From Escherichia coli (GTDB taxonomy: Bacteria; Pseudomonadota; Gammaproteobacteria; Enterobacterales; Enterobacteriaceae): a stretch of DNA of 64,000 nucleotides. The position numbers and the translations under genes were made by a program. Each line of letters begins with the position of its first letter. Positions within the stretch are counted from its first letter, which is position 1. The stretch lies in the NCBI RefSeq assembly GCF_045037415.1, contig NZ_CP173440.1; one strand, written 5' to 3'. Under the pieces are notes generated by a model that was not told the origin of the DNA, searched no databases, and saw only the letters and a list, made by a program, of their open reading frames with translations. Of the stretch, positions 36,176 through 62,540 are shown piece by piece.

Positions 36176-36533
36176 TTGAAAAACGGATGCGTGTTATCTG
36201 TAATTCTGTTTGCGCAATGCACGAAGCAGAATGTGAATTCATTTACACACATGAGTTTTCACCTACAGTCGATCATCCGCGGGAAACTGCATATGCAATT
36301 GACGCAGCGGTTCGCGTATTCGGCGAAAAAAATGTGGATTCCACGGTGACGTGTTCATACTCAAATCTCCTGCAATATGGGAGATTTGAGTATGGTTGTA
36401 CCTTGTGAGCGAACAGCGGGAATTCGCAAATGTTTCACATCTGATCAAGGCATTACTTAAAGGATGCTGTGGTAGCCAACGGGGAGCAGGTCAAAGCAAT
36501 TACAAATTGGTTTGAATTGCAACATCATGCAAA

Positions 36534-45135: not shown

Positions 45136-45328
45136 TGCTGAATGTATTACCACCGCTGAAGTAGTTTGTAGAGGGGCGCTAATGTCATTGGCATTACGTC
45201 CGCTCTTCGTTCACAGCGGACCGTCATGCCAGCTCAAAAAACAGGCTTAACGTAGGATATTTAATGAGATGGTCACTCCCTCCTTCCCGGTACTATGCTG
45301 AGGACAGGCTTTCATTCGGAGAACTATC

Positions 45329-46333
45329 ATGGAAAACATTGCGCTCATTGGTATCGATCTGGGTAAAAACTCTTTCCATATTCATTGCCAGGATCGTCGC
45401 GGGAAGGCTGTTTACCGTAAAAAATTTACCCGGCCAAAGTTGATCGAATTTTTGGCGACATGCCCCGCTACAACCATCGCAATGGAAGCCTGTGGCGGTT
45501 CTCACTTTATGGCACGCAAGTTGGAAGAGTTGGGGCATTCCCCAAAGCTGATATCACCACAATTTGTCCGCCCGTTCGTTAAAAGCAATAAAAACGACTT
45601 TGTCGACGCCGAAGCTATTTGTGAAGCTGCATCGCGTCCGTCTATGCGTTTTGTGCAGCCCAGAACGGAATCTCAGCAGGCAATGCGGGCTCTGCATCGT
45701 GTCCGTGAATCCCTGGTTCAGGATAAGGTAAAAACAACCAATCAAATGCATGCTTTTCTGCTGGAATTTGGCATTAGCGTTCCCCGAGGAGCTGCCGTTA
45801 TTAGCCGACTGAGTACCATTCTTGAGGATAATAGTTTGCCTCTTTACCTCAGCCAGTTATTGCTGAAATTACAACAGCATTATCACTATCTTGTTGAGCA
45901 GATTAAAGATTTGGAATCCCAGTTGAAACGAAAGTTGGACGAAGATGAGGTTGGACAGCGCTTGCTGAGCATTCCCTGCGTCGGAACACTGACAGCGAGT
46001 ACTATTTCAACTGAGATTGGCGACGGGAAGCAGTACGCCAGCAGCCGTGACTTTGCGGCGGCAACAGGGCTTGTACCTCGGCAGTACAGCACGGGAGGTA
46101 GGACGACATTGCTGGGAATTAGTAAGCGAGGTAATAAAAAGATCCGAACTTTGTTGGTTCAATGTGCCAGGGTATTCATACAAAAACTGGAACACCAGTC
46201 TGGCAAATTGGCCGATTGGGTCAGGGATTTACTGTGCCGGAAAAGCAACTTTGTCGTCACTTGTGCTCTGGCAAACAAGCTGGCCAGAATAGCCTGGGCC
46301 CTAACGGCACGACAGCAAACTTATGTAGCATAA
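45329..46333 (+). CDS. IS110-family transposase
   Basis: N-terminal IGIDLGKNSFH (DEDD-type) and C-terminal region typical of IS110 family. Confidence 0.75.
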   Translation: MENIALIGIDLGKNSFHIHCQDRRGKAVYRKKFTRPKLIEFLATCPATTIAMEACGGSHFMARKLEELGHSPKLISPQFVRPFVKSNKNDFVDAEAICEAASRPSMRFVQPRTESQQAMRALHRVRESLVQDKVKTTNQMHAFLLEFGISVPRGAAVISRLSTILEDNSLPLYLSQLLLKLQQHYHYLVEQIKDLESQLKRKLDEDEVGQRLLSIPCVGTLTASTISTEIGDGKQYASSRDFAAATGLVPRQYSTGGRTTLLGISKRGNKKIRTLLVQCARVFIQKLEHQSGKLADWVRDLLCRKSNFVVTCALANKLARIAWALTARQQTYVA

Positions 46334-46728
46334 CGGCAGAAATACACCGGTTTAAAGAATTACTGATCTGGTTTTGCGAATACTGATATTGATGATACTA
46401 ACGGCCCACCGGCCTGTTGAGGAACCTGTAAAACGGAAAGGCTCATTGAAGCCGTATATTTTCTGGAGGTTCATCAGGCGCGGAACTCATCAAGGCGCGG
46501 GAATAAAATCCCATTCAGACGCCGGATAGATTCAAGCAAGCCAACTTGTCGTCAAAATCGGTGTTGCAAAAACGGGAGTGACCATAGATTCCGTTTTCCA
46601 AGCGGACCCCTTACTATAAATTTTAAGCGATCACCTGACCTTCCCTGCTGCGGACTAAGTTCTAAGTGAAGAAATCCTTGTGATCTTTTTATCTACTGTC
46701 AGACGAACCACGATAATGCGTGTCGATG

Positions 46729-50521: not shown

Positions 50522-51025
50522 TTATTGATAGTGTTTTATGTTCAGATAATGCCCGATGACTTTGTCATGCAGCTCCACCGATTTTGAGAACGACAGCGAC
50601 TTCCGTCCCAGCCGTGCCAGGTGCTGCCTCAGATTCAGGTTAAGCCGCTCAATTCGCTGCGTATATCGCTTGCTGATTACGTGCAGCTTTCCCTTCAGGC
50701 GGGATTCATACAGCGGCCAGCCATCCGTCATCCATATCACCACGTCAAAGGGTGACAGCAGGCTCATAAGACGCCCCAGCGTCGCCATAGTGCGTTCACC
50801 GAATACGTGCGCAACAACCGTCTTCCGGAGCCTGTCATACGCGTAAAACAGCCAGCGCTGGCGCGATTTAGCCCCGACATAGCCCCACTGTTCGTCCATT
50901 TCCGCGCAGACGATGACGTCACTGCCCGGCTGTATGCGCGAGGTTACCGACTGCGGCCTGAGTTTTTTAAGTGACGTAAAATCGTGTTGAGGCCAACGCC
51001 CATAATGCGGGCGGTTGCCCGACAT
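50522..51025 (-). CDS. insB: IS1 InsB
   Basis: 167-aa product matches IS1 InsB. Confidence 0.9.
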
Positions 51026-51219
51026 CCAACGCCATTCATGGCCATATCAATGATTTTCTGGTGCGTACCGGGCTGAGAAGCGGTGTAAGTGAACTGCAGT
51101 TGCCATGTTTTACGGCAGTGAGAGCAGAGATAGCGCTGATGTCCGGCAGTGCTTTTGCCGTTACGCACCACCCCGTCAGTAGCTGAACAGGAGGGACAGC
51201 TGATAGAAACAGAAGCCAC
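50944..51219 (-). CDS. insA: IS1 InsA
   Basis: 91-aa product matches IS1 InsA (…[32 protein letters not shown]…). Confidence 0.9.
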
Positions 51220-51252
51220 TGGAGCACCTCAAAAACACCATCATACACTAAA

Positions 51253-51843
51253 TCAGTAAGTTGGCAGCATCACCAACCTTATGTACCTTTTGCAGCCAAA
51301 TTTTCTTGTTATTTTGCTTTGGTAGCATGATAGCATTTTTTCTTCAATTTTTAGTTGACTTTTTATTTCATTAATGCCCCCATTTTTCAGTAGGCATTGC
51401 AGCACTGCTTGTTCCTTTTTTGTTAGCCGTGGATAATGGTTTACAATTCGGCTAACATTTTTCTTTAAGAATGCAAAATATAGTTTTTCAATATTATTTT
51501 TTACATTTCCTTGCATGTTAACATAGATGTCATAATCACACCCTTTAGGATAAAACCGCCCCCCCCCCGAAACGTCAAGCCACATCCATTGGCTTATCAT
51601 ATTTAATGATCCCCTTAACATTTTGTACCCTCCCCATTTCCCTGAATAAAAAATCCTGCTGTCAACCAATACTCTTATGTTTCTTTTGTGCTTAATTGCT
51701 ATTGATTTATTAACTACTCCTTCATATGTAATATGAAACAGAGGTAGTCCAGTTAACTGCTTTAGGCCATAATAAAAAAAATAATCATCAGTCAACACTA
51801 TGTTTACATCCTTGTTACATATAAAGTAAATATATTTTTCCAT
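51253..51843 (-). CDS. LuxR-type HTH regulator, 3' end fused to the IS1 terminus, with internal G10 tract
   Basis: C-terminal LuxR-like HTH (LTKKEQAVLQCLLKNG…KITRKFG). The last ~7 codons come from IS1. The C10 run at 51559-51568 encodes GGG within the ORF. Confidence 0.45.
   Translation of the reverse strand: MEKYIYFICNKDVNIVLTDDYFFYYGLKQLTGLPLFHITYEGVVNKSIAIKHKRNIRVLVDSRIFYSGKWGGYKMLRGSLNMISQWMWLDVSGGGRFYPKGCDYDIYVNMQGNVKNNIEKLYFAFLKKNVSRIVNHYPRLTKKEQAVLQCLLKNGGINEIKSQLKIEEKMLSCYQSKITRKFGCKRYIRLVMLPTY
51559..51568. repeat. C10 homopolymer (G10 on the coding strand) inside the LuxR-type ORF
   Basis: Ten consecutive C at 51559-51568. Confidence 0.9.
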
Positions 51844-52376
51844 AGAAACAGTAACTTTGATCCATCAATATTCATCCAAAAATATTTTATAAGCATTAAA
51901 AAAAAAAACAACAGAGAATCATTTCTCTTGAAAGTCGTTGGTTACAATTTTTAATGAATAAAAATTCAATCAATCACGGTAAATAGTCATTTTTTTTGTC
52001 TTTGCGTGTTTGCAATTAATTGATCTTTTTTTTTAACCCGCCCCCCTTTATTTTGTCAGTTTGCTTAATAATTCACGATTAAAGATGTGTGGGGAGGGGC
52101 GAGTTTAGGACTTATTTTAAAATCCTTATCAAATAAATACTTTCGCAAAAAACAATTCGCTTAGTAATACTGTCTGTTTCTATAATAACCATGGTAATTA
52201 GATTTCTGAAAAATATGTTCAGATTACCACTAGTGTAACAGTTGGTGCTTGGGAGTTATTTGGCGATTGATCCGACCACATGATCCAGGCTAAATACCCT
52301 CAAAGTAAATTAATATATTGTTCTCCTTGATATCCGGCCCATTTTTTGATTTAATTTCAAATGATAACTGTATAAG

Positions 52377-53039
52377 GTGCAATCAATGAGTAATACTGAT
52401 AACGGGACGAAGATCTACACTCCATTAACTCTGAAACTATATGACTGGTGGGTGCTTTGCATTTCGAATAGTTACGCATGGAATTGTTCAACAAAGGATA
52501 TTTTAATTCCTTATTTTTTACAAAACTTAAGTCCTAACCACCTAGATATTGGCGTTGGTACTGGTTATTATCTCACTAAAATCCCTGCTCACTATAATAT
52601 ATCCCTCATGGATCTTAACCCTGCCAGCTTGAAAGCTGCATCGGCAAGAGTAGGGGAAGATAGAATACACTATAAAGTTAGGCATGATGTATTTGAATCT
52701 TACCCAGAGGAACTTCATGGAAAATTTGATTCCATATCAATGTATTACCTCATCCATTGTCTACCAGGAACAATGGAAGATAAAAGAATTGTCATAAAAA
52801 ACGCGAAGGCCGCCTTAACTAAAGGTGGAATACTTTACGGAGCAACCATACTTGGTGATAAGGTAAGGCATAATAGTTTTGCGTTAAAACTGTTGCAAAT
52901 TTATAACAAAAAAGGTATTTTTTCTAATTTTAGTGATTCAGAAGAAGAACTAAAAAAAATGCTTTCTCATTATTTTAAAAATATTGATGTCATTGTGAAA
53001 GGTGCTGTCGCAATGTTCTCTGCGCATGGAAAAAAATAG
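52377..53039 (+). CDS. class I SAM-dependent methyltransferase
   Basis: DIGVGTGYY (motif I). Paralog of the ORF at 61472..62179. Confidence 0.55.
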   Translation: MQSMSNTDNGTKIYTPLTLKLYDWWVLCISNSYAWNCSTKDILIPYFLQNLSPNHLDIGVGTGYYLTKIPAHYNISLMDLNPASLKAASARVGEDRIHYKVRHDVFESYPEELHGKFDSISMYYLIHCLPGTMEDKRIVIKNAKAALTKGGILYGATILGDKVRHNSFALKLLQIYNKKGIFSNFSDSEEELKKMLSHYFKNIDVIVKGAVAMFSAHGKK

Positions 53040-53399
53040 CTATTTATCATTTTTTCCTGGATTTATCTTTTTTAAAAACACCTTGTGAACTGATCCCATA
53101 GTTTATATTAAGCGACTAACAGGGCTTGGGTTCGGTCCTCTACCGGACTCAGGCCTTTTTGTTTTATTCTTTCATGGTTGTAATAGTGGATGTACTCATC
53201 TATAGCCATGCGCAACTAGCTGATATTCTTATGTTCCTTCAGGTAAAAACATTCAATCTTTAGCGTACCGAAGAAGCTTTCCATTACTGCATTGTCGTGA
53301 CATTTTCTCTTTCTTGACATGCTCTGTTTCAGGCCGCTGCCCTTAAGTCGCTTCTGATAATACGCCATCTGGTAGTGCATCTAATTAGTAGAACATGTA

Positions 53400-54110
53400 T
53401 TTTTCAATGAAGGCCCCGATGACTTTTTCATGCAGCTCAACAGAGCGTGAGAAACAGACGGTCGGCGAGCCAGGCGTTTGATTCGGGTTCTCAGCGTCAG
53501 ATTGTTTCGCTCAATGCGCTGAGTAGAGATTTTGCCGGTCAGATGCTTATCCTTCGGCACCTCTCTGGCGTAACTTCCCAGTCATCGCTGGTTATTATGC
53601 TGATATTAAACGGTGTGAGCAGAGCCAGCAGCGCACTGCAGGTTGCATCGGTCCGTGGCCCAAAAGTATAGGCCAGCACACCACCTGTTTTCGTGTTGTA
53701 CGCGTACCAGAGCCAGTGCTACCGGGCTTTGCTGCCGACCTCCATTGCTCGTGGAGTTCGCAGATGAGCGCCACATCGGCATGAGCAACCGGAGATGTGG
53801 TTACTCGTCGTGGCGCGAGTTTTTTAAAGTGCGAATAACGGTGTTAATGCCGATTTTGAGTGTCCTTGCGGTATCACAGACGCCGGCTCCGTTGAATGCC
53901 ATTTCGGTAATTTTCTCTTTGACGCCGTGCTTGCGTGCTTCATAAGTATAAGTGAGCAGAAACACGCGGTAGCAATCGCGGCAGCGAAACCGGTCACGGC
54001 CTTTAGGGCTCTGCCTGTGGCGGAAAACTTGGTCAGACTGACAACGGGGGCAATGAACGGTAACGCTGGTCATGAACAAACCTCAAAAGCACGCATCATA
54101 CATCAATTCA
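53400..54110 (-). mobile_element. degraded IS1-family element (divergent isoform) next to an IS3-family fragment
   Basis: InsA-like ORF 53801..54079 (…CPRCQSDQVFRHRQSPKGRDRFRCRDC…); InsB-like region 53430-53800 is frameshifted; IS3-type OrfB piece at 53200-53400. Confidence 0.55.
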
Positions 54111-54221
54111 ATTAATTAGAGGCATTGATCTCCTCCCTGAAAACAGTGCCGTCTCCTCGCCTCGTGAGCTCACACCAACAGAAGCACCGGCAGAAATAAG
54201 AATCCCTGGTTTCTCCTGATA

Positions 54222-55651
54222 CTATTTAATAATTTCTGACAGGGCCTGACCTGCTTTCTGAATATAAACTGGTTGCGAGACCTCACCCAGCTGATTGGCA
54301 ACCATCCGGGTTTCATAATGACTGGCAGTTAATACCAGAGCTGGCCCGTGAATACAGGACAGTTGTTCAACTACTGCCTTTAACCATTGACCTGAAAATA
54401 TCTGTTCTTTCGGGTCATCGAACACCTTTGGAAAATCAGCACCGGCGATGGTCAGCTTCATTGAGCCATAGACGTCTGGGGAGAATATTTTCCTGATTGA
54501 AATCGTATCGCTGGTTAACCCCAGAGCTTTACATAACCACTCCATTCCGGTCTCTGGGGTACTGGTAATAGAGAGGGTAGCCGACGTCAGTAACGCACTA
54601 CGCCACTGAGTGCAGTATCTGCCCACATTCATCCCGATAAACGGGTTTACAGCGATCAGGGCTGGTTCACGACGTTTATTGGAAACGCCTACGCCCTTTT
54701 GCCCCCGGACAATCCGAGCATATCCCTGCTGTAGATACAGTCAAAGAAAGCTTTCCGGGCCGCTTCATTTTTTATTTTCCGCCCTACCTTTGATAAGGCG
54801 TTAAAGCTATTGTCAAACAAGGCAACCGCTGCAGGCGTACTACAAAAATGCAGATCGCCCGCTATCGAAGTCACGTCGTTCATTAACTGGTCGATGACAT
54901 GCACGCCATTACGTGGAATATGTTCATTGAACGCACTAGTCAACTCTCTGAGGTTGAAGCGCCGCTGTTTCCAGACCTCAAGCATATCTACAAAAATGTC
55001 TGCCTCATCAATAATGAGGTACATATTTTCTTTGTCACCGAGGATGCGGTGATTACACATACAGTCGACCATTACCATCGCATGGGTCGTAACAATAAAG
55101 TTAGCACTGAGAGCATTCAGGCGAATATCATCAATGTCCTGTATATCATCCCAGATGGAGTAGGTGACCATCTCTGGCGTGATCTGCGCTGGCAGTTCAC
55201 CATACTCTTCTTCAAACTCAACCAGAGGTTTTGACCAGTTAGCGAGTTTTTCAAGGACCTTAACCGTATCCAGATCGGTAAATTCGTCCATGAGTAACAG
55301 TCCACGTACTTTCTCCAGGGATACGTAATTTACTTTCCCCATAAGCCGGGAAAAAGTAACTTTTATGCCGCATTGTTCAGCTATCTGTTCAAGGAGAGGA
55401 CGATCGCTTCTGAATATCTGGTGCATCAGTGCATGAGAATTCGTGGCAATCACAAATTTTGCCTCAGGGTTTTTCAGCAGAATCAGAAGCGCCGGTACCA
55501 GATAGCCCAGCGTTTTTCCTACACCTGTTTCAGCACTAATCAGTGCAACTTTATGATCCTGAGTCAGTGCACCAGCTGCAGCCTCGATATAATCCTGTTG
55601 GACCTTACGTAACGACAATCCGGCAGACTCAAATACCGCTGATGTATTCAT
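54222..55651 (-). pseudogene. DinG/Rad3-like SF2 helicase, frameshifted and C-terminally truncated
   Basis: Walker A ETGVGKT and LIIDEAD in ORF 54689..55684; LLTSATLS in ORF 54222..54632 in a different frame. The gene ends against IS-derived DNA. Confidence 0.5.
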
Positions 55652-55653
55652 GA

Positions 55654-56220
55654 CTACTGCCCCGCCAGATGCATGAAACCGCAACCAAATACGCGTTTAG
55701 GGCCTACGCCATAAACGATTCCCACTTCAGCTTCCTGTTGATTGCTGATTATGGCGGTACCCTGTACCGTGAATACGGGTAGCGTAAAACCACGTCCAGC
55801 ATTTCCTTTGTCGATATGGACGAATTTCGGGCCACTGACGACGATTTGACCGGGTTTAAACCCAGCCTTCGCTAATTTGGTGAGGGCCAACTGATAACTA
55901 GCCTCTTCAGATGGAGCAAACTGGCGTCGGCCACGGCCTTCTGACTTTGTTCCTTTATGAAAGATGGCCATTAACGTAATGAACTTGATTTCATGGCCCT
56001 CAGAGAGAATAAGCTCTCTTTTTTTCTCCCCAGGCAACTCCAGAGCTGTAGCTGTGCGGACCAGGAGTAACGAATCATCCCCGGTACCGGGAAAAATTTT
56101 AAAAGAGTACGGCAGCTTCTCTCCCTTACGTTCCTGCATGAAAAAATCCAGGTGCTGGTGGATCTGGTAAACACTTGTGTGACGGATACGCAACCGAAAC
56201 GCATTATCGTAGTAAATCAT
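55654..56220 (-). CDS. hypothetical protein, translationally coupled upstream of the helicase gene
   Basis: 188-aa ORF; stop overlaps the probable helicase start (ATGA). Confidence 0.35.
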   Translation of the reverse strand: MIYYDNAFRLRIRHTSVYQIHQHLDFFMQERKGEKLPYSFKIFPGTGDDSLLLVRTATALELPGEKKRELILSEGHEIKFITLMAIFHKGTKSEGRGRRQFAPSEEASYQLALTKLAKAGFKPGQIVVSGPKFVHIDKGNAGRGFTLPVFTVQGTAIISNQQEAEVGIVYGVGPKRVFGCGFMHLAGQ

Positions 56221-56276
56221 GGTTATACCTTTTTCAAGAGGTGCAAAATGCTCAGGCGTTGATGGGGATCAGTCGG

Positions 56277-57332
56277 GGCTTTGTTGAATAAATAAGATTT
56301 CGTGCGAACGACCCTGTAGCTGGCTGGATTTTCAGGCAATACGCACGCTTTCTGGCATCCCAGCCTTTGTCATCCTGTTCAACGCACGCACCATGGCCAT
56401 AGCTTCCGCTACCTGACCATCGTAGTCACGCAGCGTCAGTGAATCTCCCAACAACTGCTTCATTCTGTACATTGCCGTTTCCGCTATCGAGCGACGGTTA
56501 TATTCCGTTGTCCATTTCCACCGTGCATTGCTTCCGCTCAGCCGCTGATTAGCAACGGCACGGTTGCGGTCTGCGTACTCACCGGGCCAGTAACCTGCTC
56601 CTTTTCGGGGAGGAATAAGCGCGCTGATTTTTTTGCGGCGCATTTCATCGTGACAAAGCCGTGTATCGTAAGCCCCGTCTGCCGCGGCTGCCCTGATTTT
56701 TCTGTGAGTCTGCCGGATAAGGCCCGGGAAGGCTTCTGAGTCCGTGACGTTATTCAGCGACAGGTCTGCACAGACAACTTCATGTGTGTTGCTGTCAACA
56801 GCAAGATGCAACTTTCGCCAGATACGACGGCGCTCTTTGCCGTGCTTTCTGACTTTCCATTCGCCTTCACCAAAGACCTTCAGCCCGGTGGAATCAATCA
56901 CCAGGTGTGCGATTTCACCCCGGGTGGACGTTTTGAAACTGACATTAACCGACTTTGCCCGCTTACTGACACTGGTGTAATCCGGGCAGCGCAACGGAAC
57001 GTTCATCAGGGCAAAAATGGAATCAATAAAACCCTGCGCAGCCCGCAGGGTCAGCCGGAATACGCGTTTAATCACCAGAACGGTGGTGATGGCGAGATCA
57101 GAATAGCGCTGGGGCCTTCCTCGTGATGAAGGCGTTGCCGACTCATACCAGGCCTGAATCGCCTCATCATCCAGCCAGAAAGTGAGGGAGCCACGGTTGA
57201 TGAGAGCTTTGTTGTAAGTGGACCAGTTGGTGATTCTGAACTTTTGCTTTGCCACGGAATGGTCTGAGTTGTCGGGAGGATGCGTGATCTGATCCTTCAA
57301 CTCAGCAAAAGTTCGATTTATTCAACAAAGCC
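56277..57332 (-). mobile_element. IS903 (IS5 family), 1056 bp, no target-site duplication
   Basis: Terminal inverted repeats GGCTTTGTTGAATAAAT at both ends; flanking 9-mers differ. Confidence 0.95.
56332..57300 (-). CDS. IS903 transposase
   Basis: Near-identical to IS903/IS102 transposase (…KFRITNWSTYNKALINRGSLTFWLDDEAIQAWY…). Confidence 0.95.
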   Translation of the reverse strand: MKDQITHPPDNSDHSVAKQKFRITNWSTYNKALINRGSLTFWLDDEAIQAWYESATPSSRGRPQRYSDLAITTVLVIKRVFRLTLRAAQGFIDSIFALMNVPLRCPDYTSVSKRAKSVNVSFKTSTRGEIAHLVIDSTGLKVFGEGEWKVRKHGKERRRIWRKLHLAVDSNTHEVVCADLSLNNVTDSEAFPGLIRQTHRKIRAAAADGAYDTRLCHDEMRRKKISALIPPRKGAGYWPGEYADRNRAVANQRLSGSNARWKWTTEYNRRSIAETAMYRMKQLLGDSLTLRDYDGQVAEAMAMVRALNRMTKAGMPESVRIA

Positions 57333-57543
57333 CTTTGACATGCACAATTATTGTCTGCCCAATAGTCCGATAGTTAGCCTGTTTACAAAAACTGTTGCTG
57401 GTCATACTGGTGCTTTATTCCCGGTTAAGCGGGCTAGTTAACCCAGAGTGATGAACCATCCTGGAGTGGCAGATAAAGCAGAAAGAATGGATTTGTTGCC
57501 CTGATTTTTTCCGAATCTAAATAAAGATTAGCTTAATCACTCG

Positions 57544-57561
57544 TTGTTATGTTATAACATT
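57544..57561. promoter_or_regulatory. Zur-box-like operator
   Basis: TTGTTATGTTATAACATT, the best match to the window consensus. Confidence 0.55.
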
Positions 57562-57565
57562 AAAT

Positions 57566-57817
57566 TAGCAATATTCTCAGCCAGCAGCACGGCCTGTGGG
57601 GGGCGGTTATTGAGAACGAATTCGGTGAAATCTGTATAGATGATGCATTGGTTATCAATGCAGATGAAGAAGTCTTCGAGATGAATAATGGCTGCATCTG
57701 CTGCACGGTGCGAGGAGATTTGATTCATATCCTGAGTCGTCTGATGTACCGCCGCGATAAATTTGACCGTATTCTGATCGAATTCCACCGGGATGGCCAA
57801 TCTACTGAGTGAAGCAA
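57566..57817 (+). pseudogene. COG0523 GTPase fragment (CxCC region only)
   Basis: Unannotated plus-strand frame reads …VIENEFGEICIDDALV…EEVFEMNNGCICCTVRGDL… The P-loop N-terminus and the C-terminal domain are absent. Confidence 0.5.
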
Positions 57818-57999
57818 ATGAAGAGAGAGCCGCTAACGATCCTGAATGGTTTTCTTAGTCCTAGTAAAAACATGCGGTTAAAAATTTGTTAATGCAGACA
57901 CCTCAACCACAATTTCGATGTGCGTCATCGTGAACGATTTGAGCGGACAGGATGTCGGCGGCGTCCTGATTGCCAGTATAGAAATCAAGAAGGAACACC

Positions 58000-58827
58000 A
58001 TGAAGCGCAATACCGTAAGTAATCTGACAGAAAAAGATGATTTTGATACGCTGGAAAGTATTCTCAGCGTTAATATTCATTCTCTGTTGCGGCCAGACGG
58101 CGGGACGTTGCTTTCTGACGTCCATTTTGCGGTCAAAGCAGGAGAATGTCTGGCCATTATCGGGCCTAACGGCAGCGGTAAAACTTCCCTCGTGAGAGCG
58201 ATTAGTCAGGAACTGACCCATCTAAAGGGGGACATTCTTCTGCGGGGCCGTTCTATGTCTGCTTTATCCCGTCAACAGCGAGCCCGGCTGGTTGCTGTTT
58301 TGGCCCAGAATGATACACCTGATACGAGATTATCCCTTGAGGATTATGTAGCGCTGGGGCGTATCCCTCATGCCGGGGATGTACCGCGTAATGTACATGA
58401 CGCGATTGTAGCAAATGCCATTAAAGAAACCGGATTACAACGGCTACGCAGGCGGTCACTTTTATCGCTTTCCGGCGGCGAAAGACAACGAGCGGCGCTG
58501 GCACGGGTACTGGCACAGACGCCCGACCTGGTATTGCTTGATGAACCCACCAATCATCTCGATCCTCCCGGGCGCGAGGAACTGCTTTCCCTTGTAAAAA
58601 ACAAGGGGATTGCCGTCGTGGCGGTGTTGCACGATCTGACACTGACAGAATCATTTGCTGACCGTGTTCTCCTCTTGTCGCAGGGGCAATCAGTGATCTG
58701 TGACACACCGGAGAAGGTATTGGTATCAGAATACCTTTATCCCGTTTTTGGCTTGACCAGTTTTACCGTACCGCATCCCCATACAGGAAAGGCGTTGCGT
58801 ATTTTTGAAGTTCCGCATTATGTATAA
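58000..58827 (+). CDS. ABC transporter ATP-binding protein (FecE/FhuC/BtuD-like)
   Basis: GPNGSGKTS, LSGGERQR, LLDEPT. Confidence 0.8.
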   Translation: MKRNTVSNLTEKDDFDTLESILSVNIHSLLRPDGGTLLSDVHFAVKAGECLAIIGPNGSGKTSLVRAISQELTHLKGDILLRGRSMSALSRQQRARLVAVLAQNDTPDTRLSLEDYVALGRIPHAGDVPRNVHDAIVANAIKETGLQRLRRRSLLSLSGGERQRAALARVLAQTPDLVLLDEPTNHLDPPGREELLSLVKNKGIAVVAVLHDLTLTESFADRVLLLSQGQSVICDTPEKVLVSEYLYPVFGLTSFTVPHPHTGKALRIFEVPHYV

Positions 58828-58845
58828 ATTACTTTCCGAGAGTCA

Positions 58846-59805
58846 GTGATGAAAAAATTGTTTATATCCCTGCTGTCGGTACTGTCTGCTTCAGTAGCCA
58901 GTGCTGCCGATTTTCCTGTTACTATTGAAAGTTGTGGGACTCCTGTAACATTCTCCGGCCCGCCGAAAAGGGCTGTGATCAACGACCTTAATATGGCAGA
59001 GATGGCGTTTGCACTGGATTTGCAGGATCGTATTGTTGGGCTGACCGGTATTAGTGGCTGGTACAAAATGACGCCGGAATTTAAAAAGGCGATGGGCTCG
59101 ATCCCTGAACTGGCACCCAAATATCCCACCCTGGAAACATTGCTGGCAGCCGAGCCTGATTTCTTTTTCGCTGGCTGGAACTATGGAATGAAAGTAGGCG
59201 GCGAAGTGACGCCGGATACGTTAAGCAAATATGGCATCAAGACTTTCGTTCTGAGTGAAAGCTGTGTGTTCACCACTGCGCACAAAAATAAAGCCACGAT
59301 GGATCTGCTGTATAACGATATCCTCACGCTGGGTAAGATTTTTGGCAAGCGCAATGACGCACTGTCCCTAGTCAGCGGCTGGCAAAAGAGGCTGAGTGAA
59401 CTGCCGAAGCCAGCGGCAGGTACCCGTCCTTTAAAGGTGTTCGTCTACGACTCAGGTGAGGATAAACCGTTTACCAGTGGTAAATATGCGATGCCTACGG
59501 CCATGATTGAGGCGGCTGGTGGTAAAAATGCAATGGAGGCGCTGGATACCAGTTGGGGAACGACGTCTTGGGAAAGCGTGGCCGCTACTGAGCCGGACTT
59601 CATTATTTTGTTAGATTACCAGACGGGCAGCGGTGCGGATACACTGCGTCATTTTCTTGAGAATCATCCGTTAATGAAACTGACTCCGGCTGTTCAGCAT
59701 CATCGATACCTGAAATTACAATATGCTGAACTGACGCCGGGACCAGCTAATGTTGGTGCGGTGGAAAAACTCGCGTGGGCAATGTACCCGACAGAAGCGA
59801 AGTGA
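58846..59805 (+). CDS. class III periplasmic binding protein (FecB/FhuD/BtuF-like)
   Basis: Signal peptide; size and pattern of chelate/cobalamin-type binding proteins. Confidence 0.65.
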   Translation: MMKKLFISLLSVLSASVASAADFPVTIESCGTPVTFSGPPKRAVINDLNMAEMAFALDLQDRIVGLTGISGWYKMTPEFKKAMGSIPELAPKYPTLETLLAAEPDFFFAGWNYGMKVGGEVTPDTLSKYGIKTFVLSESCVFTTAHKNKATMDLLYNDILTLGKIFGKRNDALSLVSGWQKRLSELPKPAAGTRPLKVFVYDSGEDKPFTSGKYAMPTAMIEAAGGKNAMEALDTSWGTTSWESVAATEPDFIILLDYQTGSGADTLRHFLENHPLMKLTPAVQHHRYLKLQYAELTPGPANVGAVEKLAWAMYPTEAK

Positions 59806-60809
59806 TGCTCATGTCGTACCGTTATCACTGGGTGATGTGGGGATCGATGGTCGTGCTGATTGGGTTAATGTTATTCAGCATAACCAGAGGGACAGTCTCA
59901 CTGTCGCTAATGCAGGTGCTGGGTGCACTGAAGATTGTGGATGAGCCGGTATCTGCCATGGTCAGCAGAATTGTGACGGATTTACGCGTACCGAGGATGT
60001 TGCTCTCTGTGCTGACAGGGGCGGGACTGGCAATGGTAGGGGCATTGTTACAAACTACCACCCGTAACGATCTGGCTGATCCTTTTTTATTCGGGTTATC
60101 CTCCGGTGCGTCAGCAGGAGCGGTGCTGGTGATCACCCGTTTTGGTGATCGACTAGGAGTATTAACGCTCCCCGTATCGGCGTTTGTTGGTGGTGTGTGT
60201 TCCGCCATAGCAGTAATGCTGTTATTTCATTTTAAAAAGCAACGCGGAGCTGAGCATCTAATTCTCTGCGGTCTTGCCATCTCTTTTTTGTTCGGGGCGC
60301 TGACTAGTTATTTTATTTTTTCGGGCGATCAGCGAGCCGCCAGCTCAGTGCTTTTCTGGTCACTGGGTGGCCTGGGATTAGCCACCTGGAATAATTTGCC
60401 TTTTGCAGTGTTCAGCCTGGTATTGCTGTTTGCCTTTGTCCTGTTGCGGTGGCGCTCTCTGGATGGTGTGCTGGCAGGAGAACAAACAGCGTTGTCGCTG
60501 GGGATTAACGTGAGTCGTCTGCGCATCGAGATTTTTCTTTGTTGTGCACTGGCAACATCGTTGATGGTGGCATTAACCGGCGTGATTGGATTTGTTGGCT
60601 TAATGGTGCCTCATCTGTGTCGGCATTTTGCAGGAGTTAAGCATCTGTTGTTGTTACCTCTGTGTGGCGTCTGGGGTGCAATATTACTGTGTGTCGGCGA
60701 TATAGTCAGCCGGACGATACTGGCACCACAGGAACTACCAATTGGCATTATTACGGCGGGCATTGGAGGGTTGTTTATTATCATGTTACTCGCGCGAAAC
60801 TCGCCCTAG
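59805..60809 (+). CDS. FecCD-family ABC permease
   Basis: Multi-TM protein with FecCD-like motifs; TGATG stop/start overlap with the binding-protein gene. Confidence 0.7.
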   Translation: MLMSYRYHWVMWGSMVVLIGLMLFSITRGTVSLSLMQVLGALKIVDEPVSAMVSRIVTDLRVPRMLLSVLTGAGLAMVGALLQTTTRNDLADPFLFGLSSGASAGAVLVITRFGDRLGVLTLPVSAFVGGVCSAIAVMLLFHFKKQRGAEHLILCGLAISFLFGALTSYFIFSGDQRAASSVLFWSLGGLGLATWNNLPFAVFSLVLLFAFVLLRWRSLDGVLAGEQTALSLGINVSRLRIEIFLCCALATSLMVALTGVIGFVGLMVPHLCRHFAGVKHLLLLPLCGVWGAILLCVGDIVSRTILAPQELPIGIITAGIGGLFIIMLLARNSP

Positions 60810-61129
60810 AGAATATGGGCGATTACTCGCCGGGCCTCCTGTAATTTTCAAGCGATGTTATGAAACGATGGTAATCTAACTGATGGTTTGAGCGTGCCAT
60901 GTAAGTAAAGAAGAACTGGCAAACCTTAATGTTGCATTATATCATAACAAATGATAAGTGAGGCCCAATGTTTCTCTTACTGGTCGTGCTCCCAAGCATG
61001 CCTTTGGCGAAAAGGTTAGACCTCAGGCTGCGTTCAGCAACTACATGATATCTGTCTGGATTGTGACGGAGATGCGGTACTACTGCTTGTGGTTCAAAAA
61101 GGTGAAGCCTGCCACACAAGTCGGCGGAG

Positions 61130-61552
61130 TTGTTTTTACAACGCTACCGCCGGCCTTTTCATCCGACCCGTTTCTGGCAGGTGATGGAAAATGAGCTGGA
61201 TGAAGTCGTCAGATCAAAAGGTTACTTCTGGCTGGCCAGCCGTCCGGAATTCGCAGGTTCATGGTCACAGGCTGGTGGCATTGCGCGCCAGGCGCTGGGG
61301 GGCATGTGGTGGGCGAGTGTGCCGAAAGAACGTTGGCTAGAGGATGCTGAGTCACTGAAGTTCATCATGTCTAACTGGATAGATGGCATTGGTGATGCCC
61401 GTCAGGAACTCGTTTTTATTGGAATGGATATGAATGAATCAAAACTGCGCAACAGACTGGATTCCGCCCTGTTAACGGATGCAGAAATGGCTGAAGGGCC
61501 TCAAAATTGGCGGCATTATCCCGATCCTGTTGAGCCTTGGTTCGAAGAATGA
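61130..61552 (+). pseudogene. C-terminal fragment of a COG0523 gene (about 95% identical to the C-terminus of the 30714..31937 product)
   Basis: …[18 protein letters not shown]…PVEPWFEE aligns to the C-terminus of the 30714..31937 protein; no N-terminal GTPase domain. Confidence 0.6.
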
Positions 61553-62179
61553 ATCGAAGGCACCCGTATTTGTCGGGTGCCTTCGTATGAGGGCGAAAAA
61601 GGGGCCATTTTTTAGCCCTTCTTCAGAATCACTCATATTAGAAAAAATACCTTTGTGATTATAAATCCTCATTAGTTTTGATGTGAAACTATTATGCATT
61701 ACCCCATCGCCAAGTATGGTTGCCCCGTAAAGTATTCCGTCCTTAGTTAAAGCAGCTTTCACGTTTTTTATGACAACACCTTTATCCACCATCGCCCCAG
61801 GAAGACAATGTAAGAGATAATACATTGATATAGAATCGAATTTACCATGTAGTTCCTCTGGATAAGATTCAAATACATTATGCTGAACTTCATACCGTAT
61901 TCTGGCTTTCCCTATCCTTGCTGATGCCGTTTTCAAACTAGCCTTATTGAGATCCATAAGTGAGATATTGTAATTTGCAGGAGCTTTGGCAAGATAATAC
62001 CCAGTTCCAACGCCAATATCTAAATGGTTAGGTCTTAAATTTTGTAAAAAATAAGGGAGCAAAATCTCTTTTGTCGGACAATGCCAAGCGTAACTGTTGG
62101 AAATGCTCAGCACCCACCAGTCATAAAGCTTCAAAGTGAATGGTGTGTAGATCTTCGTTCCTTCATCAACATTACTCAT
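61472..62179 (-). CDS. class I SAM-dependent methyltransferase paralog; 3' end altered by a junction with the COG0523 fragment
   Basis: Matches the 52377..53039 product for about 190 aa (…DIGVGTGYY…) and then diverges into sequence antisense to the COG0523 fragment. Confidence 0.45.
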   Translation of the reverse strand: MSNVDEGTKIYTPFTLKLYDWWVLSISNSYAWHCPTKEILLPYFLQNLRPNHLDIGVGTGYYLAKAPANYNISLMDLNKASLKTASARIGKARIRYEVQHNVFESYPEELHGKFDSISMYYLLHCLPGAMVDKGVVIKNVKAALTKDGILYGATILGDGVMHNSFTSKLMRIYNHKGIFSNMSDSEEGLKNGPFFALIRRHPTNTGAFDSFFEPRLNRIGIMPPILRPFSHFCIR

Positions 62180-62404
62180 TAGTTATACCTTGCAACAGTC
62201 AATGTGGATAAGCAGAGCATATAGCAATATGCTCAATATCTCCTTTCTATTTTATCACGATTTTTTCCACTACTTACCAAGATTTACAACAAACAACATA
62301 TTATTGCAATGCATTGCCATTTTGTTCACATACTTGGCAATTTATAAGTATATTGCATAAATATAAAGTTGACTTTTAGAGTTCTTTTTTGTAGATAAAC
62401 TCTC

Positions 62405-62540
62405 ATGGAAATATGGAAATATGGAAATATGGAAATATGGAAATATGGAAATATGGAAATATGGAAATATGGAAATATGGAAATATGGAAATATGGAAAT
62501 ATGGAAATATGGAAATATGGAAATATGGAAATATGGAAAT
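62405..62540. repeat. 17 perfect tandem copies of the 8-bp unit ATGGAAAT
   Basis: 136 bp of uninterrupted ATGGAAAT repeats in the intergenic region. Confidence 0.95.

Follow-up and report, generated by a model that had tools for sequence, protein, structure and literature searches.

[quoted passage not shown] Their main role is plasmid-plasmid competition by crRNA-guided transcriptional repression, and spacers are taken up via the type I-E Cas1/Cas2 of the host (PMC11519345; Benz et al., bioRxiv 10.1101/2023.06.23.546257). Pre-crRNA is cleaved by Cas6 at the hairpins of the 29-bp repeats, Cas6 staying on the 3' handle, and the crRNA is assembled with Cas8, Cas5, about six copies of Cas7 and Cas6 into an effector complex, which locates a target flanked by a PAM on a rival plasmid, where an R-loop is then opened (PMC11519345; Benz et al.). 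DinG is recruited to this complex, with its HD2 helices and C-terminal tail anchoring it to Cas8, Cas5 and Cas7 (PMC11519345), and its 5'-3' translocation results in nuclease-independent transcriptional repression with no cutting of DNA (PMC11519345; Benz et al.). Structures of the type IV-A3 effector with DinG are available (PDB 8S35-8S37; Cepaite et al. 2024, PMC11519345); Cas6 is not modelled in the 8S35 structures (PMC11519345). Partial type IV-A3 loci (cas8-like, cas6 and dinG) with IS elements have also been described on IncHI1B/IncFIB plasmids, cas6 tending to be spared by the IS elements (Newire et al. 2020, PMC7434947).

Intact loci of this kind are arranged in the order 137-aa P-loop gene, cas8/csf1, cas6, dinG/csf4, cas5/csf3, cas7/csf2 and CRISPR array. 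The full cas operon is present in all four of the intact loci compared here, and in both of the records with repeats in their feature tables an array is annotated beside it; the repeat of the array is 29 bp in length (GTATTCCCCCCGTGTGCGGGGGTTATCGG). Their gene products are Cas8 (263 aa), Cas6 (188 aa), DinG (624 aa), Cas5 (235 aa) and Cas7 (343 aa). The genes are tightly packed, with 2 nt between cas8 and cas6, 2 nt between cas6 and dinG, an overlap of dinG with cas5, and 4 nt between cas5 and cas7. PADLOC analysis of the intact proteins gave matches for Cas8 (Csf1_2_IVA3, E=3.9e-122), Cas5 (E=7.2e-125) and Cas7 (Csf2_1_IVA3, E=6e-151), while the intact DinG matches chain M of PDB 8s35 (also 8S36 and 8S37) with 1400.6 bits over residues 1-624.

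[quoted passage not shown] An earlier, sequence-only reading of this DNA had described a two-gene module, consisting of an unknown 188-aa protein and a DinG-like helicase, in an arrangement held to be typical of several anti-phage systems. The ORFs of both genes are real and were confirmed on the minus strand, and the small ORF and the helicase adjoin in every related locus examined, a check which that reading had itself proposed. The pair, however, forms the central part of a cas operon of five genes with an array, the tight spacing being typical of the whole operon, and the literature places type IV-A3 mainly in plasmid-plasmid competition rather than among anti-phage systems. Intact versions, which had been expected to exist elsewhere, were found as the cas8-cas6-dinG-cas5-cas7-CRISPR loci of IncHI1B/IncFIB conjugative plasmids, and the cas6-dinG DNA of four intact alleles is 96.7-99.2% identical to that of the window. 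The identity of the genes is settled by HMM matches, near-identical intact loci and a solved structure. The defence-system HMM scan suggested by the sequence-only reading, carried out with PADLOC, yielded matches to IV-A3-specific Cas6 and Csf4 models.

The first gene of the pair, cas6 (55654-56220, minus strand), is an intact ORF of 188 codons predicted to encode a type IV-A3 Cas6e-like endoribonuclease. In profile searches the protein matched PADLOC Cas6_0_IVA3 at E=4.6e-82 (residues 1-187) and Pfam PF08798 (Cse3/CasE family) with 33.3 bits, above the cut-off of 25, and it is 98.9% identical to the Cas6 of the intact locus. It carries a single private change, S83L (55973), which is absent from all four intact alleles. 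MAFFT alignment with CasE of E. coli K-12 (~24% identity) places H21 of Cas6 opposite H20 of CasE, and the C-terminal G-rich loop of Cas6 (GVGPKRVFGCGF) aligns with GIGPAKSMGCGL of CasE. H20 of E. coli CasE is the catalytic histidine. [quoted passage not shown] It is already named in RefSeq, where the product in identical plasmids is type I-E Cas6/Cse3/CasE; this name is misleading as to subtype, because the gene belongs to a type IV operon beside dinG and not to a Cascade/cas3 operon. No Cas family was matched in an NCBIfam scan of the protein despite the RefSeq product name. A search against PDB sequences gave no match at E<=0.01, the sole match at E<=10 being a weak one to the G-loop of Cse3.

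The helicase gene follows closely, with the TAG stop codon of cas6 (55654-55656) 2 nt before the helicase ATG (55651), a gap that would be compatible with translational coupling. It is a dinG/csf4 pseudogene which, by homology to the intact alleles, comprises codons 1-499 of 624 (54156-55651, minus strand). The first ORF (55651-54692) encodes 315 native residues and five out-of-frame residues before a stop (320 aa in total), and the second piece is found in another frame (ORF 54632-54222). Alignment to the four intact alleles revealed a -1 frameshift at codon 316 (54702-54706, minus strand), where a run of six G in the intact alleles is reduced to five; the shifted frame terminates at 54689-54691, its product ending in LGLSGGKRA. 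The same alignment showed a nonsense codon at position 477 (TAG, 54222-54224, minus strand; CAG or GAG in the intact alleles). Homology to dinG runs for 66 nt past this nonsense codon, to position 54156 (codon 499/624). DinG has lost its 125 C-terminal amino acids, and with them the motif-VI-like QSIGRGIRS (aa 560-568) and its C-terminal tail; the Walker A motif (aa 40-47) and DEAD box (aa 215-218) are still present. Bypass of the frameshift cannot give a full-length DinG, as the gene ends 125 codons short. Relative to the four intact alleles, dinG has accumulated five synonymous and five non-synonymous private changes, together with the one-G deletion and the nonsense codon.

The two helicase pieces matched PADLOC Csf4_0_IVA at E=4.4e-123 (profile positions 7-339) and E=1.6e-49 (361-510), and tblastn with intact DinG showed residues 1-320 and 317-499 to match at ~97%. 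Pfam matches are to DEAD/ResIII, the ORF is annotated in RefSeq as a DEAD/DEAH box helicase, matches to the NCBIfam DinG/YoaA models are weak (E ~1e-20 to 1e-24), and PDB 6fwr and 3crv are distant matches. The helicase is, on the strength of these profile and sequence matches, CasDinG/Csf4, ~97% identical to the DinG of PDB 8S35; its homology to intact CasDinG (Csf4) is unambiguous, but the gene itself is a pseudogene. The description of it as DinG-like, frameshifted and truncated was correct. The 320-aa N-terminal fragment of DinG, in which Walker A and the DEAD box are retained, could be made as a protein. A stand-alone DinG-type module without other cas genes was also considered as a candidate and is refuted by the surroundings of the pair in intact loci, four of four having the full operon.

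The upstream side of the pair is cut as well, an IS903-like element having left only the last 17 codons of cas8. This 3' remnant of cas8/csf1 (56223-56276, minus strand) consists of codons 247-263 of 263 and the TAA stop codon, as established by tblastn and DNA alignment: residues 247-263 of intact Cas8 match window positions 56276-56226 at 100%, and DNA homology to the intact locus starts at 56276, within cas8 codon 247. A Cas8/Csf1 large subunit is consequently absent, 94% of cas8 being gone with the IS903-like element in its place. The element is of the IS5 family, ~1,057 bp in length (56277-57333, minus strand), as recognised by its inverted repeats and by the RefSeq annotation 'IS5 family transposase' in identical plasmids. 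Perfect 18-nt inverted repeats are located at 56276-56293 and 57316-57333, and the transposase ORF (57300-56332) is co-oriented with cas6 and ends 111 nt upstream of it. No target-site duplication is present at the IS903-like element (9-bp flanks atcagtcgg and ctttgacat), which suggests an IS-mediated deletion or rearrangement over a simple insertion.

On the downstream side, the helicase had been thought to be cut off by IS-derived DNA. This holds in so far as the 3' deletion is situated beside an IS1-family pseudogene; the end of the ORF at 54222, on the other hand, is the nonsense codon and not an IS junction. The pseudogene flanking the dinG truncation (IS1N-like, ~81% identity) has a homology range of ~53367-54126 (minus strand) and is annotated in identical plasmids by RefSeq as 'IS1 family transposase, frameshifted; internal stop'. 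Its IS1N-like homology begins at window position 54126/54125, and the recognisable end of the element is at ~54126-54134; going by the homology limits on both sides, ~21-29 bp (~54127-54155) lie between this end and the dinG breakpoint. Abutting the IS1-family pseudogene is an IS3-family transposase fragment (53108-53374, minus strand), a RefSeq pseudogene mapped to the window (ORF 53380-53216).

The remaining parts of a type IV-A3 locus were searched for throughout the 64-kb window. Using the intact proteins as tblastn queries, nothing was found for Cas5/Csf3 or Cas7/Csf2 at E<=1, and searches for the rest of Cas8 and for the 137-aa upstream protein were likewise negative. The 29-bp type IV-A3 repeat had 0 matches in the window at up to 3 mismatches, no CRISPR array was detected there by Tandem Repeats Finder, and no Rfam CRISPR-DR family is present in it. 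The Cas7/Csf2 backbone, Cas5/Csf3 and an adjacent CRISPR array are thus all lacking from the window; the missing parts could be located elsewhere on the plasmid, although none is annotated near the locus in pK2044-type records. None of the 19 spacers of an intact type IV-A3 array (E. coli BAA-196 plasmid) matched the window over more than 14 nt, a length at chance level. The locus is unable to interfere in cis: of the steps of interference, which were worked out with near-identical proteins, every one except a possible Cas6 activity is ruled out, because the array, cas5 and cas7 are absent, cas8 is reduced to 17 codons and dinG is broken. With these parts missing, crRNA-guided, DinG-dependent interference is predicted to be impossible here, and the earlier suspicion that this copy is inactive is borne out.

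Positions 11269-27 of pK2044 correspond to window positions 51275-62516 at 99.96% identity, and the window is therefore part of a hypervirulence plasmid of the pK2044/pLVPK type. Replicon typing of pK2044 (NTUH-K2044) gave IncFIB and IncHI1B. Carriage on a large IncHI1B/IncFIB-type plasmid is evident from sequence identical to that of the window in pK2044 and hundreds of Klebsiella plasmids. A 2.18-kb region is 100% identical in many plasmids of Klebsiella pneumoniae (~180-390 kb) carrying rmpA, peg-344 and iro genes, and it is the rmpA-peg-344-iro virulence region that the 3' deletion of dinG abuts. The junction of the truncated dinG with IS1 is shared by 416 plasmid records, including pLVPK (NC_005249), and that of the truncated cas8 with IS5 by 344 plasmid records, including pK2044; the relic is therefore taken to be fixed in the pK2044/pLVPK plasmid lineage.

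The decay of the locus appears to have been stepwise. The virulence-fusion plasmid pKPC2_Vir_090515B1 has the same dinG lesions and S83L change as the window, yet its cas8 is complete, and it still has the 137-aa gene and the backbone genes upstream, syntenic with the intact plasmids. From this we infer that the IS1-side deletion, the frameshift and the nonsense codon preceded the IS903-side deletion. The 3' end of dinG, cas5, cas7 and the array would have been lost first, at the IS1-family element beside the rmpA/iro cargo, with the point lesions of dinG arising; later, in the pK2044 sub-lineage, an IS903-like element would have removed the greater part of cas8 together with the genes upstream of it.

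The frameshift is located in a homopolymer (a run of G), which is a classic site of error, and both it and the stop codon could be read as sequencing or assembly errors in a dinG that is truly intact. Such a reading is hardly credible: dozens of complete plasmids sequenced independently, among them the Sanger-era pLVPK and pK2044, agree at 100% over the region, so the frameshift is not an assembly error, and dinG also has an independent nonsense codon and has physically lost its last 125 codons. There is next to no chance, likewise, that the pair is a self-contained two-gene anti-phage module, in which a small adaptor would work with a DinG-like helicase and of which intact two-gene versions would exist elsewhere. 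The two genes are always adjacent with a 2-nt gap, and the helicase has weak PADLOC matches to other defence helicases (SngC, DpdJ; E>1e-4), as this would have it, but in all intact relatives examined the pair lies within a cas8-cas6-dinG-cas5-cas7-CRISPR operon, the IV-A3-specific matches are >70 orders of magnitude stronger than those to any other defence family, and the end of cas8 is still found upstream of cas6 in the window.

The relic of a type IV-A3 system might still be partly alive, if orphan Cas6, produced by read-through from the IS903-like transposase, acted in trans on the pre-crRNA of a co-resident type IV-A3 system (by processing or sequestering it) or bound host type I-E repeats. 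The ORF is intact, with H21 and the G-rich loop aligning with catalytic CasE features, and functional cross-talk between type IV-A3 and host type I-E systems has been reported (Benz et al., bioRxiv 10.1101/2023.06.23.546257; PMC7434947). Read-through from the IS transposase into cas6 is conceivable, the two ORFs being co-oriented and separated by 111 nt in which there is no terminator-like site. Residual activity of this kind is nonetheless considered unlikely. There is no promoter-like site upstream of cas6; in a scan for promoters and terminators around the locus, counts were at shuffled expectation, and the stretch from the IS to cas6 had none. Private changes are fewer in cas6 (1 in 567 nt) than in dinG (12 in 1,496 nt), which might point to retention, but this difference is not significant (selective-retention test, binomial P=0.09), and the sole change in cas6, S83L, is non-synonymous and affects a residue that does not vary among the four intact alleles. 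Recent clonal spread, and not selection, accounts for the 100% identity among virulence plasmids. A further proposal, given only a very slim chance, is that the orphan cas6 has been retained for its usefulness. Cas6(S83L), made by read-through, would bind or cleave repeat hairpins, either those of type IV-A3 arrays on resistance plasmids that enter the cell or already reside in it, or those of the type I-E array of the host. If true, this would perturb the loading of crRNA and weaken CRISPR interference against the virulence plasmid, which is non-conjugative, and the orphan would amount to a cas gene domesticated as an anti-CRISPR decoy. On the simplest view, the intact cas6 ORF would be a not-yet-degraded passenger of the dead locus.

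In the literature searched, no paper was found that points out a type IV-A3 relic on pLVPK/pK2044 specifically; PMC7434947 treats partial loci in generic terms only, and neither pK2044 nor pLVPK is named in its text and one supplementary file. The missing description is a minor gap and does not make the relic a new kind of system, and its value is modest, being evolutionary book-keeping with little new biology. The classical hypervirulence plasmids of the pLVPK/pK2044 lineage go back to an IncHI1B/IncFIB backbone on which a CRISPR system for plasmid competition was once present. As this system was lost at the edge of the rmpA/iro cargo, the virulence plasmids may be regarded as 'disarmed' in comparison with the co-resident, fusing resistance megaplasmids. 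The junctions at 54156 and 56276/56277, together with the G5 frameshift, are handy lineage markers for the tracking of these plasmids.

Among known systems, the helicase resembles housekeeping DinG/YoaA/XPD proteins (Rad3-family SF2) in its SF2 core, Walker A motif and DEAD box. It is set apart from housekeeping DinG/YoaA by a score of 83 bits against an equivalog cut-off of 789, and it falls in the CasDinG clade. Cas6 is similar to type I-E Cas6e (CasE/Cse3) in its PF08798 match, the alignment of His21 with His20 and the C-terminal glycine-rich loop, and the hairpin of the type IV-A3 repeat resembles type I-E repeats; it differs in having only ~24% identity to E. coli CasE and in coming from a type IV operon beside dinG. 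The partial loci of Newire et al. (PMC7434947) are likewise IS-associated and retain the cas8-cas6-dinG side, whereas in the window cas8 is nearly gone too and dinG is also point-mutated. Unlike an intact type IV-A3 system, the window has no cas5, cas7 or array and lacks 94% of cas8, and its dinG is frameshifted, interrupted by a nonsense codon and shortened by 125 codons at the 3' end; given these losses, it cannot act as a system. Also among the closest known systems are the type IV-A3 loci of Klebsiella/Enterobacteriaceae IncHI1B/IncFIB conjugative plasmids, with which the window shares Cas6 and DinG proteins of 97-99% identity, gene order, the 2-nt junction and the backbone family. The relic is of an already known kind: the type of system, its mechanism, its structure and IS-riddled partial loci have all been published, and its gene products are named in RefSeq.

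A conserved gene encoding a P-loop protein of 137 aa was identified directly upstream of cas8 in four related type IV-A3 CRISPR-Cas loci that were examined, comprising three with an intact cas operon and the remnant carried by the virulence-fusion plasmid pKPC2_Vir_090515B1 (L003, 8210-8623; L005 and L006, 3787-4200 in each; L007, 740-1153; numbered by record). The protein possesses the sequence GPSRSGKT and is named 'NB-ARC domain protein' in some RefSeq records; PADLOC returned no match for it. The gene is absent from the window and could be an accessory component of IV-A3 loci that has not yet been described.

At the truncated end of dinG, about 21-29 bp (54127-54155) lie between the breakpoint and the recognisable IS1-family terminus, and these show no match to dinG or to IS1N-like elements. 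The sequence from 54149 downstream is also present in one plasmid that lacks dinG, NZ_LR792629.1, which suggests that the dinG/IS1 junction was formed through recombination or a deletion and not through direct insertion.

At the opposite end of the remnant, the IS903-like element (IS5 family) that truncates cas8 is bordered on its far side by a frameshifted, partial pseudogene of a GTP-binding (ZigA/CobW-like) protein (57552-57800) and by an iron ABC transporter operon that is intact and encodes an ATPase, a substrate-binding protein and a permease (58000-60809). In pKPC2_Vir_090515B1, the same element is instead adjoined by a truncated parB; it therefore marks a rearrangement point that varies between virulence-plasmid lineages. 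In the E. coli plasmid pE17EC0180-1, an IS5-family insertion splits cas5 (L008, 4447-6219) of an otherwise intact IV-A3 locus, indicating that such loci have been struck repeatedly by the same IS family.

A perfect tandem array of seventeen copies of the octamer ATGGAAAT was also observed in AT-rich intergenic DNA at 62405-62540 (TRF: 100% matches, score 272).

Comparison with the K. pneumoniae virulence plasmid pK2044 showed an extra ~1.3 kb (45262-46589), inserted relative to its position 36306. This contains a forward-strand ORF of 334 aa (45329-46333), the product of which begins MENIALIGIDLGK and presumably resembles IS110-family (IS4321/IS5075-like) transposases. Conversely, ~20.3 kb of pK2044 (11269-31614) are missing at 50522-51280, where an IS1 copy occupies the join. 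Lost with this stretch are the final ~60 nt of rmpA, followed by rmpD, rmpC, peg-344, iroBCDN, fecI/fecA and a RES-Xre toxin-antitoxin pair; rmpA is therefore truncated and the salmochelin locus absent in this virulence plasmid variant.
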